This document shows positions 5,328 to 12,922 of a DNA stretch of 20,000 bases, piece after piece. The notes below the pieces were generated by a model. It was not told the origin of the DNA. It saw nothing but the letters and a program-made list of their open reading frames with translations, and made no database searches. Every line of letters starts with the position of its first letter. The stretch's first letter is position 1. The DNA is from an uncultured virus (IMG/VR IMGVR_UViG_3300037147_000124) (lineage: Duplodnaviria > Heunggongvirae > Uroviricota > Caudoviricetes): the IMG/VR virus record IMGVR_UViG_3300037147_000124, positions 54,196-74,195 of that record; one strand, written 5' to 3'. The translations under genes were made by a program, and so were the position numbers.

Positions 5328-7570
5328 TGCCCAGCAAGACCGCTAACCAGATGAAAGCAGACCGTCTTCAGATCCAGGAAACGTATCGGCTCACCCGCCT
5401 CATGGCATTCACGGACGGCACGCTGAAGAGCGCGTCGAAGCCGATCGCGATGCGGAGGACGGTTGCCGGCAAGCAGATGGAGCCCAACATCAAAGGGCTC
5501 GGCGATCGTACCGCTTCGTACACCGGCGGAACCTTCCAGCCGCGGGAGATCCCGACCGGAGCACGCCACGTCACCGATGCCCAGATGCGCGCCTGGAAGA
5601 CGACCGTCGACAGCGGGATGAAGATCGCCGATGCCGGGAAGATCATCAACCCGGACATCACCCGGATCAAGCAGGCCAAGGCGGCCGACTACATCGGCAC
5701 CTATTACATGTGGAATGGGGTCCTGCAGCCGGAATACGACATGCGCGAACCGCATGCCATCGTGGACACCGAAGTCTATGTAAAGCAGATGGTCCACCGG
5801 AAGCTGGCGCTCGCCGCCCGCGCCGGCTACGAGATCATGAGCGACCGGGATGAGGACGCTGAGTACATCCAGCACCGCATCGACGTCATGGAGTTTGTCT
5901 CGGAGCGCAGTTTCCCCAGCCTGCTCAAGGGCATTCTGTACAACCTCTTCACCTGCTCCAACTGCTTTGTTCACAAGCTGCGCAAGGAAGATGCGTCCCC
6001 GGTTCCCCGCAAGAAGGGGATGCCGGCGCCGGTCGCCGCCTATTCGATCATCCCGGCCCACACCATCCAGCCCTACCTCGAGCATGGCCGGATCGTGAAG
6101 TGGCGTCGCTTCTTCGACTCCGCCGTTCCGTGGCAGGACATCCCGGTCGAAGACATCATCCACTTCAAGTGGTCCTCCGATCTCAAGGCTGGCCACATCT
6201 ATGCCACCCCGCGCACGATCGCCGTCCGCGACGACATCTTTGCGCTCCGCCGCTTGGAAGAGAACGTCGAACTGCTGTTCATCAACCACTTGTTCCCGTT
6301 GTTCCACGTTCAAGTGGGCACCGCGGAAGCGCCTTGCACCTACGGCGACAACGGCGAGTCTGAGATCGACCTGGTCCGCTGGCAGATCGAGAACATGCCG
6401 AAGGAAGGCGTCTATGTCTCGGACGAGCGCGTCAAGATCAGCGCCGTCGGCGCCGAAGGCAAGTCCCTCGACTTCTCCCCACTGGTAACGCACTACAAGA
6501 GCCGCGTCTATGTCGGGCTGGGCATGAGCGCCATCGACATGGGCGAAGGCGCGGACGCAACGCGCGCCACCGCCGACAACATCTCGCAGAACCTCAAGGA
6601 TTCGATCAAGGCCGATCTCGATGACCTGGCCGATCAGATCCGGATGTTCATGTTCCGCGACTGGTTCATGGAGGCGAACTACTCGACCTCCGTGCAGAAG
6701 GGCGTGGCCCGCACCTTCATCCGGTTCCACGAACTGGATCTCGACAACCGGATCAAGGAAGAGACCCACGTCCTGGCTCTCTTCAACTCCCACCTCATCA
6801 CCGAGGATGAAGCCCGCAAGCGCCTGAAGTACAAGGCGATGACTCCGAAGGATCGGGGCAACACCCACTTCAGCCTGCATGTGGTGAAGCTTGAGAAGGA
6901 GATTACCAAGTTCAAGACTGCCTCGACCCTCGAAATCAACGCCGCCAATGTCGACAACGAAAAGAAGATGGCAGGCACCCAGATCAAGCTGATGGAGGCG
7001 CAGGCCAAACTCTCCGAGACCAAGACCGGTCACGAGGAGCAGAGTCTCGCCGCCCAGGCCAAGCATCTGCCTGTCATCGCCAAGGCCAAGGTAGCGGTGG
7101 CGAATGCTACCGCGCGCAAGGGCGCCGCCGGCGCGCCGCGCCGCTCAACCGCCAAGAAGACGACGCAGACCGCGGCCGCCGTCTCGAATAAGATGCGCCC
7201 GACCAACCAGCACGGCAGCGGCCTGGGGCCGACCAAGGCTAAGTCCAGCCGTGAATCCTTCATGGGCGAGTTGTACGAAGGCTTGCTGCTGGCGCGCGAG
7301 GACATGATCAGCGATGGACAGTCCGCGCCGAAACAGTGGCAGTCGGTCAGTTCGGAAGTGGTAGATCAGGTCCTGGACCGTATGGAGAAAGCTGAAATCA
7401 CCGGTTCGGGTGGTGATTCCTATACTAGACAGGTGAGAGATGGACTTAGCCGATTGAAGGCCATGATCGCTGAGACCTCTGACCCTGAACTTCTCTCTGT
7501 CCTCCTTCGGGAAGGCATCGAGGAAGAGGTAGTAGACGATGTCGAACTTCACGACGCACTTGCCAGTTAG
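5327..7570 (+). CDS. Portal protein with long C-terminal extension (747 aa)
   Basis: Located between terminase and protease. Portal-like segments EDIIHFK, IYATPRTIAVRDDIFALRRLEE, RVYVGLGMS and LITEDEARKRL, followed by a coiled-coil and basic tail. GGAG RBS upstream. Confidence 0.85.
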   Translation: MPSKTANQMKADRLQIQETYRLTRLMAFTDGTLKSASKPIAMRRTVAGKQMEPNIKGLGDRTASYTGGTFQPREIPTGARHVTDAQMRAWKTTVDSGMKIADAGKIINPDITRIKQAKAADYIGTYYMWNGVLQPEYDMREPHAIVDTEVYVKQMVHRKLALAARAGYEIMSDRDEDAEYIQHRIDVMEFVSERSFPSLLKGILYNLFTCSNCFVHKLRKEDASPVPRKKGMPAPVAAYSIIPAHTIQPYLEHGRIVKWRRFFDSAVPWQDIPVEDIIHFKWSSDLKAGHIYATPRTIAVRDDIFALRRLEENVELLFINHLFPLFHVQVGTAEAPCTYGDNGESEIDLVRWQIENMPKEGVYVSDERVKISAVGAEGKSLDFSPLVTHYKSRVYVGLGMSAIDMGEGADATRATADNISQNLKDSIKADLDDLADQIRMFMFRDWFMEANYSTSVQKGVARTFIRFHELDLDNRIKEETHVLALFNSHLITEDEARKRLKYKAMTPKDRGNTHFSLHVVKLEKEITKFKTASTLEINAANVDNEKKMAGTQIKLMEAQAKLSETKTGHEEQSLAAQAKHLPVIAKAKVAVANATARKGAAGAPRRSTAKKTTQTAAAVSNKMRPTNQHGSGLGPTKAKSSRESFMGELYEGLLLAREDMISDGQSAPKQWQSVSSEVVDQVLDRMEKAEITGSGGDSYTRQVRDGLSRLKAMIAETSDPELLSVLLREGIEEEVVDDVELHDALAS
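7396..7426 (+). promoter_or_regulatory. Candidate internal promoter/operator: inverted repeat AATCACC-N9-GGTGATT followed by TATACT
   Basis: AATCACC at 7396-7402 and GGTGATT at 7412-7418, with a -10-like TATACT at 7421-7426, in a locally lower-GC patch at the portal 3' end. Confidence 0.35.
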
Positions 7571-7721
7571 GGAGATCAACCCCACCGGCATTGTATCCGC
7601 ACCGCTGGAGACCGCGCTTGCAATGGGCGCCGGGGCAATGTTCCAGAGTCCGGTACAGGTATCCCAGATCCCCGCAGGCGGTTCTTTCCTGCTCGAGATC
7701 CCCCTCAACGTACAGAACTAA
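7539..7721 (+). CDS. Small hypothetical protein (60 aa) overlapping the portal 3' end
   Basis: GAGGT RBS-like sequence upstream of the ATG. Ends in TAA and fills the gap before the protease gene. Confidence 0.6.
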   Translation: MSNFTTHLPVREINPTGIVSAPLETALAMGAGAMFQSPVQVSQIPAGGSFLLEIPLNVQN

Positions 7722-7791
7722 CTGCAGTCGACGCCGGACAAGAACTACGTTACCCGGGTGACTGACAGTTCGTCAGGAAGAACAAGCCGAC

Positions 7792-9903
7792 ATGTCCAAC
7801 GAGCGACGCTGGCTCAAGGTCCGCGACTTTCTGACATTCCGTCCGAAAGAGGTCCTTGAGGATAAGAAACACTTCTTCGAGTGCAAGGACTCTACCTCCG
7901 AGACAGGCAGTAGCCTGCTCGTGCGCGTCAACGCGACGCACGCCGGTCTGGTCACCGGCAACCGCAAGTTTTACCGTCCTGATTTCATGCAGGACTCAGT
8001 CCACACCTGGCTGCCGAAGCACAAGCCGGCGCTTCCAGTGTTGCGTGGACACAGTGAGGATGGCGAGGTTCTGGGCCGCGTTCGCGAGGCCAAGTACATC
8101 GATGACTCCTGGCAGTATGCGAAGGACTATCCGATCCTCAAGGATTCGGTCTTCTACAACCGGGATGCCCGGTCCAAGAAGGTAGGTCTCTTCAAAGCTG
8201 TCGACTGGATCACCGACAATCTAGTCCCCCTGTCCGACTACCGTGGTCTGGGCCACATCGAACTCGGCCTGACCATCACCAATCCGGAAGCGATCAAGAA
8301 GATCCTCCGCGACGAATACCTTTGCGTTTCGGCCGGTGCCATCACCGACGAGGCAATCTGCTCAATCTGCCACACCGATTGGGCTTCGAACGATAAGTGC
8401 GAGCATCGCCCTGGGCAGCTCGTTGATGGCCGCCGGATGTTCATTATCTCCGGTCGCTTCCGCTACGAGGAACTCTCCTTCGTCAACTTCGGCGCCGATC
8501 CATTCGCCGCCGTGAAGACCAAGGAATTGAAGGACTCCCTCGAGAAGATGTTCTTTCTCGGCTTGCCGATCGGAGACCAGGATCACATGGTCGAGGCGGG
8601 CCTCAAACTGACCGACAGTCTGTATGAGTCGGACATCCAGATTCATTACGAGGAACCCGAGATGACGATCGATTTGGCTGCCCTTGAGCAGACCATCAAA
8701 AGTGCCGAACTGACCGCGACCGATGCCTTTGCGGTGCGCGACCAGCTCCTGGCCTGGACCCCGGAATCGGAAGACGACAAGAGCGCCAAGCGCAGCTTGC
8801 AGTCGACCCTGACCGCCAAGATTCGTAAGAACAGCTGGAAGCAGGACACTCCTGTTACAGTGACCGACGCCGTCGCAGCTCCTTCCGCGGAAGAACTCGC
8901 CACCGTCGATAAGGTCAAGGATGCAGTTGATGCTGCCGCCGTCGCCGCCGCCGTCACCGAGTCCGAGACTCCGGCAACGGAAGTCAAGGACAAGGTCGAA
9001 TGCTTTGCCTGCAAGGCGAAGTTCACCAAGGACAAGATGGGCGTCACTTCCGACGGTGAGAATGTCTGCGAAGAGTGCAGCGAGAACATCAAGGACGCCA
9101 AGAAGGCAACCGACGGTGTTGTCAAGATCAGCGATGAGCTGAAGGCCCTCGCAGTCGGCGTCAAGTTGCTCGATGCCGAAGAGAAGGCCGAGCCCACCGA
9201 AGAAGCCAAGTCGATTCTCGGTTGCTACGAGACGCTGGACAAGTTGCACGGCAATGCGAGCCAGGAACTGCGCTGGAAGATGGAAGACCTTCACGGCTCC
9301 ATCGGCGAGCGTTGGGGCAAGGATCGCTGGGTCGAGTACGCGAAGTCCACGCTGGCCAACCACGTCAAGGACTCCAAGCTCGTCTCCAACGACGAGCTGG
9401 CGCTCAAGGATGAGGCTGTCGTCACCCAGGAAGCCGAGATCACCAAGCTCCAGGGCACGATCACGATCAAGGATCAGTCGATCGCCAAGTTCTTCAACGA
9501 CTCGAAGCTGAGCATGGCCACCACCATCGTCATGGCCAGTGTCCTGCGCCAGAAGGACGGTTTCACCGGCCTGGATGGAGCCAAGATCCAGGACAAGATC
9601 AGCGAGTACGCGAAGCGGCATATCACCAGCCTGCGCGACTCCGTCGCCGACATCCTGAATGAGCTGCAGTGGGCCAAGCCCGTTGTAGCCGCACCGGAGG
9701 CAGCGGGCAAGGACCCGGCCACCACGGTAACCGACAACGCGCATGTAAGCGAGTCCGAAGGGTTCCACCCTGAAGCGCAAATTCCGGAACTGAAGGCGCA
9801 AGACGCCCAGAAGCTGAACCGGATGCTCTCTTACATCACCGACGAACCTGCACGTACCCGGCTGATTGCGGATGTGCGGTGGGGTCGGACGAAGCTCAGC
9901 TAA
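7792..9903 (+). CDS. Prohead maturation protease fused to a scaffold domain (703 aa)
   Basis: N-terminal prohead protease-type motifs (GNRKFY, PVLRGH, YLCVSAG, CSIC...CEH, EELSFVNFGAD). The C-terminal two-thirds is A/E/K/D-rich and coiled-coil-like. Canonical position between portal and capsid. Confidence 0.85.
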   Translation: MSNERRWLKVRDFLTFRPKEVLEDKKHFFECKDSTSETGSSLLVRVNATHAGLVTGNRKFYRPDFMQDSVHTWLPKHKPALPVLRGHSEDGEVLGRVREAKYIDDSWQYAKDYPILKDSVFYNRDARSKKVGLFKAVDWITDNLVPLSDYRGLGHIELGLTITNPEAIKKILRDEYLCVSAGAITDEAICSICHTDWASNDKCEHRPGQLVDGRRMFIISGRFRYEELSFVNFGADPFAAVKTKELKDSLEKMFFLGLPIGDQDHMVEAGLKLTDSLYESDIQIHYEEPEMTIDLAALEQTIKSAELTATDAFAVRDQLLAWTPESEDDKSAKRSLQSTLTAKIRKNSWKQDTPVTVTDAVAAPSAEELATVDKVKDAVDAAAVAAAVTESETPATEVKDKVECFACKAKFTKDKMGVTSDGENVCEECSENIKDAKKATDGVVKISDELKALAVGVKLLDAEEKAEPTEEAKSILGCYETLDKLHGNASQELRWKMEDLHGSIGERWGKDRWVEYAKSTLANHVKDSKLVSNDELALKDEAVVTQEAEITKLQGTITIKDQSIAKFFNDSKLSMATTIVMASVLRQKDGFTGLDGAKIQDKISEYAKRHITSLRDSVADILNELQWAKPVVAAPEAAGKDPATTVTDNAHVSESEGFHPEAQIPELKAQDAQKLNRMLSYITDEPARTRLIADVRWGRTKLS

Positions 9904-9930: not shown

Positions 9931-11133
9931 ATGGCTTTTGACGTCAATAACCAGTACACCGGCAAGATGTTCGGCAACGACCGGTGGCCCGGTCACACCA
10001 CCCCCGATCTCGAGGCTTCCGAGCCCATTCGGCCGTGGCTGCCCGTTCCCTACCCGGCGCCCTACCTCCCGGCTCTGCGCCAGGATGCGGGTCATCCCAA
10101 GTTGGCTTCCGTTGTCCTCAGCTCGCAGCATCTCGTGGGCCAGGACAAGAGCGGCGCATTGGTTCCCGCGGGCCTGTTCTGCGGCGTCACCCCCGGCGCG
10201 TCGAACAAGTATTGCATCCTGCAGTACAGCTCCGGCCTGGCCGATGAGTTCACCGTTGACCCGCGCACCGGCGGACCGGTAACTCCTGGCGACCACGTGT
10301 TGCTCGCAGCGCCGTCCGATGCAGCTCCAGGGAACATCACGCTGCCCAACGGCACCGTGGTTGTGATCTCGCAGCCCGACATCGACTTCGCCCATGCCTG
10401 TAACCTCTTCCCGGCTGTGCAGTCCGGCACGACCCCCACGGGCGTGGCTGGCGCGCCGGTTGCCTACTCCTTCGGAGTAGCCCGTCCCATCGGCGTCGCA
10501 GTGCGCAACGTGCTCCAGTACATCGGCGGCGTGAAGGTGCTCGACACGACTCTGGTCGGCGGCATCCTGTATCGCCTCGAAGGCATGGTTCCCACCGGCT
10601 TCCAGGTCAACAACTACATGCACGAGATGGGCACGGCCATCCAGACCCAGTACGTGCTGCGCGTGCCATGGATCGGCGCAACCCCCGGCACTCTGCAGGG
10701 CTTTGCGACGACCGACAACATCCGCGGCTATGTCCAGGGTTACGGACGCAGCTTCGCCCACTACACCGGCGCACCCCAGGTCGGCAACGGCGTCACCTTC
10801 TCCCAGCAGACCGGCGATTGCGGCAACTACTCCGACTTCGACGCGACCAAGAACACCCCGGTCGATCTCATCGGACGCATCATCGGCGTGCTGAACATGA
10901 TCCAGAAGGTCGGGTACTCGAACCGCATCAAGACCCTGTGGGATCCGTCCCGCATGGTTGGTCCGACCAACAACCCGAACCCCGCGTCGATCATGATGGG
11001 CGGTTCCGCCACCGGCGGTATCCCGTACGACCTGTCTCTGACCACGGACGGCATCTACAAGGCCTCCCTGATCCAGAAGACGGCCGCTCGCCCGGAGTAC
11101 GGCACCTACGTCCTCGTTCGCGTCAACCTGTAA
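9931..11133 (+). CDS. Probable capsid decoration or minor capsid protein (400 aa)
   Basis: Strong AAGGAG RBS, highly biased codons, G/P/T-rich. Lies between the scaffold and major capsid genes; the function is inferred from position. Confidence 0.65.
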   Translation: MAFDVNNQYTGKMFGNDRWPGHTTPDLEASEPIRPWLPVPYPAPYLPALRQDAGHPKLASVVLSSQHLVGQDKSGALVPAGLFCGVTPGASNKYCILQYSSGLADEFTVDPRTGGPVTPGDHVLLAAPSDAAPGNITLPNGTVVVISQPDIDFAHACNLFPAVQSGTTPTGVAGAPVAYSFGVARPIGVAVRNVLQYIGGVKVLDTTLVGGILYRLEGMVPTGFQVNNYMHEMGTAIQTQYVLRVPWIGATPGTLQGFATTDNIRGYVQGYGRSFAHYTGAPQVGNGVTFSQQTGDCGNYSDFDATKNTPVDLIGRIIGVLNMIQKVGYSNRIKTLWDPSRMVGPTNNPNPASIMMGGSATGGIPYDLSLTTDGIYKASLIQKTAARPEYGTYVLVRVNL

Positions 11134-11172
11134 GCCGACCGAACCAACAGTTTGTTCGTGTGGAGATTGCCC

Positions 11173-11373
11173 GTGCCGCAGATCGTGATTACCCAGGGTC
11201 AGGCGTACCTGAAGGGAAACGGTCTGCGGTGCATGGCTCCCCGCTATGACGACGCCACCTGCAAGTGCAACACGCTGGTGGTGAAGAAGAACTCGGCCGG
11301 TGAACTATCCGGGGCCTTCCAATGCCCCGAACGCCGCTGCCGCCAACACATCGAGGTTGAGGTTCGGCCCTAA
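11173..11373 (+). CDS. Small zinc-ribbon protein resembling Mu Com-family translational regulators (66 aa)
   Basis: GGAG RBS at 11162-11165 and GTG start. Pattern LRC...CKCNTLVVK...AFQCPERRC resembles the Com-type RC..CN.LL...IKCPRC pattern. Confidence 0.65.
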   Translation: MPQIVITQGQAYLKGNGLRCMAPRYDDATCKCNTLVVKKNSAGELSGAFQCPERRCRQHIEVEVRP

Positions 11374-11458
11374 ACCGAACCCCTTCGTGAATCCAGCTCC
11401 ACAAGAACACCCGCACGGTCCCGCGCGGACCAGCTCGCCCCAGGAGGGTATTTTCACC

Positions 11459-12787
11459 ATGGCAAAGAATAAGCAGACACCGGAAGAGTTCCAGGCCGAG
11501 CTGAAGCTTCAGGACCGGTTCGCGACCATTTTCCGCAGCAATGGGTACGATCCCGAGACCGGCGACCCGATGGATATCAAGGACGCTCTGGATGTTCAGA
11601 ACGCGGCCTTCATGATCCCCCGCGCGCTGACTCAGATCGTGCAGGAAGGCATCGAGCCGATGCTCATCGGCACGAACCTGCTCCAGAAGGTCCAGTACAA
11701 GCCTGGAATGACGACCGTATTCCCCGCCATCGAGCCGCTTCGCGCGGACGAAGCCGGCGACGGAATGGATCTGCCGATCTACAACATCAACATCGGTGGA
11801 GCACAGTCGTTCGGTGTGACGGTCAAGCGGCACGGTCTGCGTCTCAAGATCGCCAAGCGCTTCGTCGACGAGTCCAGCTACCCCTGGATCAACTTCTGGC
11901 TGCGCCTGGCCGGCAACGCTCTCGCCCGCCACAAGGAAGAGTACATCTTCGACTTCATCACGCGCCTCGGCACGGTTGTCTTCGACAACGACGTCAACGC
12001 ACGTATGACGTCCAACACCGTCGGCCAGCCCATCAAGGGCGTCACCACGGGTCGCGACTACAAGGGCAAGCTGAACGGCTCCATGACGGTCGACGACATC
12101 TTCGATATGTACGCGGCTGTTCTCTTGAACGGTTTCGTGCCCGACACGATGCTGGTCCATCCAATGGCGTGGCTCATGTGGGTAAAGGATCCCGTGATCC
12201 GCGAGTTCGCGATCCAGGCGGGCGGCGGAAGCTTCTTCGCTCAGTGGACCGGAAACCCGGCTGTCCAGGGCAACAAGTTCTACAACAACGGCGGCCTCGG
12301 CCTCGGTACCGGCCAGACCGGCCAGTACACCAACGGTCAGCTGACCGGTGGGGAAGTCTCCAACGCCACGTCCGGCAACTACCAGAACATGAGTTCGGCA
12401 CCGCAGCTCCCCGGTTACCTCGGCCTGCCCTTCCGCATCCTGGTCTCGCCGTTCGTCAAGTTCGACCCCGAGGATCGCACGACCGACATCCTGATGTTCA
12501 ACAGCCGCAACCTCGGCGCCTTGATCGTGGCTGAAGAGCCCCATGTCAAGAGCTGGGAAGATGGCCAGTTCAACATCCAGAACATGTCGATCGAAGAGAC
12601 CTACGGCTTCGGCATCCTCAACGAAGGCCAGGCGATCGCGGTTGCCCGCAACATCAAGGTCCGCCCGAACGAGTTCACCATGCCGGCGCGCACCGTGTTC
12701 AACCTGTCGGAGGCGAACAACACCTTCACCGATCTGGCAACGGCAGCGATCTTCGATGCGGCGAACCCGCTCAACGTCAACGCCTAA
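11459..12787 (+). CDS. Major capsid protein, HK97-fold type (442 aa)
   Basis: AGGAGG RBS before ATG 11459, preferred over 11300, and very strong codon bias. Capsid-like segments IKDALDVQNAAFMIPRAL, KRHGLRLKI, AGNALARHKEE, PDTMLVHP and EETYGFGILNEG. Followed by a strong hairpin. Confidence 0.9.
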   Translation: MAKNKQTPEEFQAELKLQDRFATIFRSNGYDPETGDPMDIKDALDVQNAAFMIPRALTQIVQEGIEPMLIGTNLLQKVQYKPGMTTVFPAIEPLRADEAGDGMDLPIYNINIGGAQSFGVTVKRHGLRLKIAKRFVDESSYPWINFWLRLAGNALARHKEEYIFDFITRLGTVVFDNDVNARMTSNTVGQPIKGVTTGRDYKGKLNGSMTVDDIFDMYAAVLLNGFVPDTMLVHPMAWLMWVKDPVIREFAIQAGGGSFFAQWTGNPAVQGNKFYNNGGLGLGTGQTGQYTNGQLTGGEVSNATSGNYQNMSSAPQLPGYLGLPFRILVSPFVKFDPEDRTTDILMFNSRNLGALIVAEEPHVKSWEDGQFNIQNMSIEETYGFGILNEGQAIAVARNIKVRPNEFTMPARTVFNLSEANNTFTDLATAAIFDAANPLNVNA

Positions 12788-12808: not shown

Positions 12809-12850
12809 GAGGCGGACGGTCAACACTGATCGTCCGCCTCGTGTGGTTTC
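12809..12850 (+). terminator. Strong stem-loop after the capsid gene (terminator or mRNA stabiliser)
   Basis: GAGGCGGACGGTCA-acac-TGATCGTCCGCCTC forms a 14-bp stem with one G-U pair. The downstream U-tract is weak (GTGTGGTTTC). Confidence 0.65.
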
Positions 12851-12922
12851 GAGGCCCTCCATGTTATCCAGCCTTTGGTAGTCCGCTCCGCCCTTCCACA
12901 ATCAGGGGTGGAGGCATACTTC

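Follow-up and report, generated by a model that had tools for sequence, protein, structure and literature searches.

A Com-like zinc-ribbon gene and conserved leader hairpins before the major capsid gene of a phage clade: a candidate translational activator of capsid synthesis

The question raised by this locus is why a gene for a very small zinc protein stands directly before a major capsid gene. The window, that is, the whole stretch of 20,000 nucleotides analysed here from an uncultured virus of the Caudoviricetes, holds the head module of a large phage, in which terminase, portal (phrog_9232), protease/scaffold, a 400-aa gene, a mini-gene and the major capsid protein (MCP, phrog_3922) follow one another. 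An initial annotation had listed a 66-aa Cys-rich ORF with its own ribosome-binding site, repeats, hairpins and an 85-nt capsid leader, all of which lie where it had placed them, and had proposed that a Com-type protein plus an RNA element may set the timing or stoichiometry of the capsid. Com is the translational activator of mom and binds a hairpin adjoining the translation inhibition structure (TIS) of mom mRNA (PMC6483171). The reading favoured here, at a probability of roughly 0.6, is that the mini-gene product is a Com-type translational activator of the MCP, acting in trans. The genes concerned are the following.

9931..11133, plus strand: upstream 400-aa gene, putative head decoration protein (synteny with 0305phi8-36 gp124)
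11162..11166, plus strand: mini-gene ribosome-binding site GGAGA (GGAG at 11162-11165; from the sequence, homologs sharing the start position)
11173..11373, plus strand: Com-like CCCC zinc-ribbon mini-gene (ZF), 66 aa, C20-x11-C32-x18-C51-x4-C56 (conserved Cys, model, HMM)
11459..12787, plus strand: major capsid protein (MCP), 442 aa, of the 0305phi8-36/ME3 lineage (PHROG 3922, E 1e-11)

The mini-gene is a genuine gene. Its ORF opens with GTG at 11173, the homologs starting with ATG at the same position, closes with TAA at 11373 and encodes five Cys, and C20, C32, C51 and C56 are invariant in 49/49 aligned homologs. Judged by sequence, the product appears to be a CCCC zinc module. Its AlphaFold model is all-beta (pLDDT 89), and the protein has an N-terminal extension with an extra beta-hairpin that is absent from Mu Com. 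Pfam and PHROG returned nothing for the single window protein, and NCBIfam, applied to 49 family members, gave weak generic zinc-ribbon matches and nothing else. The best score of an ESM Atlas search with the window protein was 0.89, which is a lead only. Contigs covering the mini-gene turn up in the metatranscriptomes of two studies, and they show its presence only.

Profile comparisons indicate that the protein is a remote relative of Com by descent and not a formal member of the Pfam family PF10122 (Zn_ribbon_Com). Mu Com (from NC_000929) reaches 18.6 bits on the family HMM, against at most 11.4 bits for 995 Cys-fixed shuffles, none of which (0/995) scores as high; on a wider profile it reaches 14.7 bits, and the best Cys-fixed shuffle 13.4. 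The family aligns to Mu Com by hhalign at 94%, a value attained by 0/100 Cys-fixed shuffles. Searched against 1.84 billion proteins, the family profile gave 57 matches, and three of the nine outside alignment A2 lie above the PF10122 cut-off. One true PF10122 protein retrieved in this way finds the Com genes of B3, SuMu and Mu-like phages, and its phage matches are Com-type or unannotated in 14/14 cases. Two full family members are named 'phage FluMu protein Com' in IMG. The Com-like protein first proposed from the window alone is borne out by the hhalign result, by the Mu Com score and by the retrieval of PF10122 members. At the PF10122 gathering cut-off, 0/49 family members were accepted (4/49 match, best E 0.0069), a PDB sequence search returned no Com chain, and fold searches in PDB and BFVD gave no match at E<=0.001 (best Z 3.1), a non-match that excludes nothing.

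The MCP of the window is 28-31% identical to annotated major head proteins, and the closest cultured MCPs, at this identity, are those of MTATph1, ME3, KLEB27-3, WH1, Edson and 0305phi8-36. The 400-aa upstream gene has no family match in Pfam or PHROG, and its decoration role is assigned via synteny. An MCP 84% identical to that of the window lies on a 3.26-Mb contig of an Acidobacteriaceae MAG, another with 68% identity belongs to a Terracidiphilus MAG, and several records near the window's phage are classed as proviruses; an Acidobacteria host and a temperate life style are therefore likely. Other features of the module were also observed. Between portal and protease there is a 60-aa ORF (window 7539-7721), without match in Pfam and PHROG, which has a counterpart in L132, L135 and L145. 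The protease/scaffold protein (7792-9903) carries an internal CxxC...CxxC at residues about 398-432, with a weak HypA match. A terminator-like hairpin is present 3' of the MCP (window 12809-12915), and the Shine-Dalgarno (SD) sequence of the gene after the MCP falls within a long stem in the window and in L002, L018 and L035. Strong GC-rich hairpins with no clear U-tracts lie between decoration stop and ZF start in L018, L022, L031, L033, L038, L044 and L064, and similar ones follow the decoration gene in 0305phi8-36, WH1, KLEB27-3 and MTATph1. An Rfam scan of the window gave a single sub-threshold minus-strand match, which was taken as chance.

The position of the mini-gene before the capsid gene, suggested at first by one sequence, is confirmed by synteny. 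Loci found via the MCP have the ZF gene upstream in 43/43 cases with upstream DNA (44 viral loci; 2 with an HNH-like gene between), and metagenome loci found via the ZF gene have the MCP downstream in 25/25. Wider searches yielded 242/254 usable loci, which form 66 clusters at 90% MCP identity, and the ZF gene occurs in 21/22 clusters at >=56% MCP identity vs 0/44 at <=45%. It is single-copy in 3/3 long records; a search of five records from the outgroup or L180 did not recover it, and 0305phi8-36 and ME3 gave no match either. On a quick MCP tree the 22 clusters form one branch (100% SH-aLRT), with one gain plus one loss (L180). Gene and hairpins mark one clade, that is, one evolutionary event, and because of this single gain and single loss the gene-hairpin correlation is not independent evidence. 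The gap between ZF and MCP ranges from a 4-nt overlap to 520 nt. A ZF-MCP fusion by readthrough or frameshift was considered and rejected, the gap shifting frame among close relatives (76, 77, 78, 85 nt).

Two hairpins of the capsid leader are central to the argument.

11416..11431, plus strand: H2, GGTCC-CGCGC-GGACC, candidate binding hairpin of the Com-like protein (SELEX match; Mu mom alignment)
11437..11449, plus strand: H3, hairpin over the MCP Shine-Dalgarno (AGGAGG, 11442-11447), local fold -4.7 kcal/mol

Across the clade H2 has a 4-bp stem, its base usually closed by G-C, and ends about 9-14 nt before the SD. A stable hairpin of 4-7 bp ending 7-17 nt before the SD is present in 13/21 ZF lineages, where 4.2 are expected (p 2e-5), those of L030 and L043 being probably unrelated; the outgroup lineages have a stable hairpin in this zone in 14/44 cases vs 10.5 expected. 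About 5/22 ZF lineages have no clear H2, by the stable-hairpin test or by eye. The bipartite Com SELEX consensus, an outside motif (PMC6483171), is matched at >=7/10 positions with intact stem by 15/37 distinct ZF-linked leaders (6/22 lineages; 0.1 expected, tile background 0.9%) and by 0/47 ZF-less leaders, the threshold of 7 having been fixed after the sequences had been viewed. The window's H2 matches at 7/10 positions, with its stem intact, and Mu's own site at 8. Single matches at 7/10 positions are frequent in this genome (about 110 in 74 kb, both strands counted) and the window loop has no GA, so that the SELEX evidence for H2 is collective. The Com hairpin loop motif is CC(N)2-3GAG and its GA is called crucial (PMC6483171); a loop GA is found in H2 of L170, L183, L249 and L280.

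Twelve hexaloop examples of H2, selected by hand, can be aligned with the Mu mom hairpin from their sequence only, without any shift of register. Between L063 and L068 there is one double change within H2, from A-U to G-C. The A7 covariation count, which gives double changes at 4/4 pairs, a result reached by 0/500 shuffles, is descriptive, its 13 sequences having been picked for a 6-nt-loop hairpin. A covariance model built from 12 close leaders found held-out leaders weakly (E 0.2-4), missed the distant group and detected the full element at no other leader of the window; a MAFFT alignment of 34 whole leaders was of poor quality. No convincing second target was found in G000. The leader hairpin GGTCC/GGACC (11417-11431) of the initial annotation persists as part of a conserved leader element, its pair probability in the single sequence (fold of 11120-11480) being 0.29.

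In ZF lineages the SD of the MCP leader is predicted to be occluded by structure, as in switches of the com-mom type. Local SD folds of <=-2.5 kcal/mol are seen in 18/21 ZF lineages vs 6/44 outgroup lineages, and the H3 stems and the bases following the SD vary together (e.g. CCC/GGG, GCCU/AGGC, AAGUC/GGCUU). At these loci the SD of the MCP is more occluded than that of other genes (median for the local fold -5.45 kcal/mol in 14 lineages vs -1.15 kcal/mol in 50 genes, one of which duplicated an MCP start; p 9e-5) or of 15 genes whose SDs are equally good (p 0.003), and more than in the MCP of the outgroup (-5.9 vs -0.1; GC-matched p still 0.003). The decoration gene, which serves as an internal control, has an open SD (local fold 0 to -1.7 kcal/mol) in 11/12 lineages where it was called, the exception being L018, where the start looks miscalled. 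The SD opening energy is not above that of shuffles of the upstream 45 nt (mean z -0.01; 5/14 above zero). For the window, most local shuffles exceed H3 in strength (p 0.93); the hairpin has a probability of about 0.26 in its long context (fold of 11120-11480), and H3 is no stronger than the C-rich local composition predicts. The conserved RNA element near the MCP start is real but modest. It had been said that the mini-gene is embedded in structured RNA; for the single-sequence signal this wording was too strong, none of six leader segments being clearly stabler than shuffles (z -1.6 to +1.3). In L036 (9478-9503) a second gene has a CCCU-AGG-AGGG hairpin at its SD, such as the MCP leaders have, with no obvious H2.

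These results bear on another function that the protein may have, namely that of a minor component of the virion or a small factor in head assembly, retained in the head module so as to be co-expressed; the leader hairpins would then be unrelated to it and act in mRNA stability, processing or rate tuning. Such a role would suit the invariant place among structural genes, the N-terminal beta-hairpin that Com does not have, an SD occlusion not above local shuffles and the pairing of the SD also at the gene after the MCP in several lineages. It leaves unexplained why only ZF-bearing phages have a hairpin like the Com SELEX target at a set distance from the SD, and likewise the com/mom-like overlap described below; in five cultured relatives no gene of this kind stands between the decoration gene and the MCP. 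On balance we consider this role unlikely.

If the protein is instead a trans-acting activator of the Com type, the MCP leader would fold with its SD paired, either by H3 or, in some lineages, by a longer stem that uses the H2 loop and 3' arm. The protein would bind H2, which lies upstream of the SD by about 9-14 nt, and once bound would make the MCP initiation site accessible, the effect that Mu Com has on mom mRNA. Capsid synthesis would then likely lag late transcription and stay low under leaky transcription. The RNA binding of the protein, the sign of the regulation, its purpose and its target, the MCP, are what we infer from the homology, the synteny and the leader hairpins.

A counterpart of the com-mom arrangement is found in L183 and L280, where the ZF frame, with a C-terminal tail, runs through the leader, contains H2 and overlaps the MCP ATG; com likewise overlaps mom in Mu (NC_000929). 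The lowest-energy fold of these two leaders pairs the H2 loop and 3' arm with the SD region and excludes H2, and forcing H2 in L183 brings the SD opening from 7.3 to 3.5 kcal/mol. The leader of L183 and L280 is predicted to be a two-state switch with mutually exclusive folds. In L073 (505-548) a near-SELEX H2 with one stem mismatch was noted, whose loop and 3' arm pair, by eye, with the SD region like in L183. The C-terminal tails of the proteins P0016, P0031, P0033 and P0023 contain RFGET and end in EVS plus a few residues, which is the expected in-frame translation of the H2 hairpin plus SD; this coding by H2 and SD is confirmed in DNA for L280, a relative of P0016, only, and no DNA locus was recovered for P0031.

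When H2 is forced in 22 leaders, the SD opening shifts by <1 kcal in 16, among them the window with 0.2 kcal; in only 5/22 is it lowered, by 1.1-3.8 kcal, and in one it rises by 1.0. In the leaders of the window and its closer relatives the two hairpins can coexist and forcing H2 has little effect, so for activation there the bound protein would have to play an active part. For Mu, melting of the structure was not seen with truncated Com, and a structure of Com in complex with RNA is stated to be not available (PMC6483171). The lineage that lost the gene, L180, has neither ZF gene nor H2, yet H3 is kept (the record is a 30-kb fragment); this fits loss of the binding site along with the protein, and equally shows that H3 may not need an activator.

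The same data can be read in the opposite sense, the protein binding H2 and repressing or buffering MCP translation as a stoichiometry feedback, with H3 as a constitutive dampener that ribosomes open unaided. H3 does outlive the gene in L180, the SD stays closed in most lineages when H2 is forced, and the L117 group keeps H2 where H3 is weak or absent. That repression is quite improbable follows from the characterised relative, Com, which activates (PMC6483171), and from L183 and L280, where formation of H2 excludes the SD-pairing stem.

A candidate promoter was also found in the module.

7420..7427, plus strand: CTATACTA, candidate phage late promoter, located within the 3' end of the portal gene and ahead of protease-decoration-ZF-MCP (position conserved; putative function)

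CTATACTA is at the same place in nine lineages inspected and is strand-biased in 2/3 genomes. The form CTATACTA(G/A) occurs in G000 at 31835, 50007, 53042 and 61615, with 4/4 copies on the plus strand; its strands are 8+/2- in G001, 0+/9- in G002, a reversed record, and 15+/5- in G003, which is richer in AT and has a high control. A sigma-70 promoter scan found none. HNH-like or other ORFs are inserted on either side of the ZF gene (L031:4427-4853, L032, L063, L030, L071), and some of them follow their own CTATACTA copy. The HNH-like gene of L031 and L032 puts ZF 520 nt from the MCP, and H2 and H3 remain at the MCP; this insertion and the candidate late promoter between ZF and MCP at four loci favour action in trans.

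A second kind of repeated element lies at the start of the mini-gene.

11142..11156, no strand assigned: 15-bp dyad RACYRAC-N-GTYNGTY with a 1-nt centre, second copy at 7760-7774 (pattern search)

The initial annotation had read the CGAAC/GTTCG pair at this place as able to form an RNA hairpin, for which the predicted probability is 0.03-0.04; the pair belongs to one copy of the dispersed dyad. The window's copies lie ahead of the protease and ZF ribosome sites, those of close relatives (L130-L147) right behind the MCP stop and ahead of a tail gene, and several sites fall at late-gene borders. Counts are 7 in G001, 4 in G002, 2 in G005, 5 in G004 and 1 in G003, with 0-2 for a reversed-pattern control, the pattern having been derived from the same sequences in which it was counted. 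The half-sites vary regardless of pairing, which suggests a DNA operator, and the dyad is probably a separate, operator-like DNA element. Ahead of the ZF gene it is found in clusters L001, L002 and L024 only.

P2 Ogr and P4 Delta (PF04606) are small C4 zinc late activators that bind promoter DNA. It is highly improbable that the mini-gene encodes such a late-transcription regulator, acting on the CTATACTA promoters or on the dyad as its own site. A C4 zinc protein within a late operon would invite the comparison, as would the dyad at its RBS and at other late-gene borders and the NCBI name of Com-family members, 'DNA-binding transcriptional regulator'. However, this name is automatic, the protein is clade-wide whereas the dyad precedes the gene in the three clusters just named, and PF04606 has no match at the gene in 5/5 records (control: one over-cut-off match in 14 known genomes).

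The remaining element surrounds the end of the mini-gene.

11361..11381, plus strand: H1, hairpin enclosing the mini-gene stop codon (P>0.99; strong in the closest lineages only)

This hairpin, GGTTCGG/CCGAACC, had been described as part of a switch in which the two ACCGAACC copies (11138, 11374) compete for the same partner. It does form, and is kept in three close clusters only (L001, L024 and L002: z -1.2 to -3.8, maintained via wobble and double changes), 7/21 clusters across the clade reaching a 4 kcal threshold. The alternative pairing of the copies is not supported, with a predicted probability of 0.000 and with both copies present in the window's cluster only (16/17 loci; 0/20 other clusters); their number is itself near chance (2 vs 0.83 expected; 49/200 shuffles have >=2). 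A cis switch, in which the ACCGAACC/GGTTCGG pairings are flipped by mini-gene translation, which would in this way gate the MCP, would make use of the enclosed stop codon kept in three close lineages and is hardly credible in view of a long-range pairing probability of 0, the absence of the ACCGAACC pair from 20/21 clusters, the variation of the gap to the MCP start and the candidate promoter between ZF and MCP in L030, L031, L033 and L044.

Com has been characterised as the activator of Mu mom; a literature search that covered few subscription journals brought up no paper in which a capsid gene is under the control of a gene of the Com kind. If trans activation of the MCP is true, an activator of the Com type dedicated to the virion's most abundant protein would show that phages can time capsid synthesis post-transcriptionally, and the clade would offer a natural series of co-drifted protein-hairpin pairs for learning how Com zinc ribbons read RNA. 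Capsid protein is a known trigger of several abortive-infection sensors. A wider picture, which we hold as tentative and rather doubtful, is that the phages of a whole clade, which infect Acidobacteria, are partly temperate and measure roughly 200 kb, gate their MCP by a dedicated Com-type RNA switch, so that no capsid would come from leaky or early late-operon transcripts and protease and decoration protein would be made freely. The clade would then display the steps between a com/mom-like overlap and two-state fold, seen in L183 and L280, and an intergenic element that has become detached, with loop and protein both altered.

Among known systems, P2 Ogr and P4 Delta are likewise small C4 zinc proteins tied to late expression, with no profile match here. 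The head modules of 0305phi8-36, ME3 and MTATph1 have the same order portal-protease/scaffold-decoration-MCP, with MCPs 28-31% identical, no ZF before the MCP, no family or PF10122 match in the records searched and a largely open SD. In Pseudomonas R-tailocin clusters com homologs adjoin cargo genes, LlpA and others (PMC4684702). There, too, Com homologs are linked to non-mom genes inside virion-type clusters, although the neighbours are cargo and not a capsid gene, and the passages of that source on these clusters describe no RNA element (PMC4684702). The window differs from Mu in its downstream gene, which is the major capsid gene and not the DNA-modification gene mom, in the spacing of the first two Cys (11 residues apart, 2 in Mu Com), in a 19-residue N-terminal extension and the lack of a C-terminal tail, and in a hairpin loop of 5 nt without GA. 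Like Mu Com, its protein appears to be a small CCCC zinc protein with the pattern RC...CNKLL...C..C. As in com-mom, the ZF gene lies directly upstream of the next gene, overlapping it in L183 and L280, and a candidate binding hairpin of 4 bp, with a GA 5' flank and a C 3' flank, stands beside the structure predicted to hide the initiation site.
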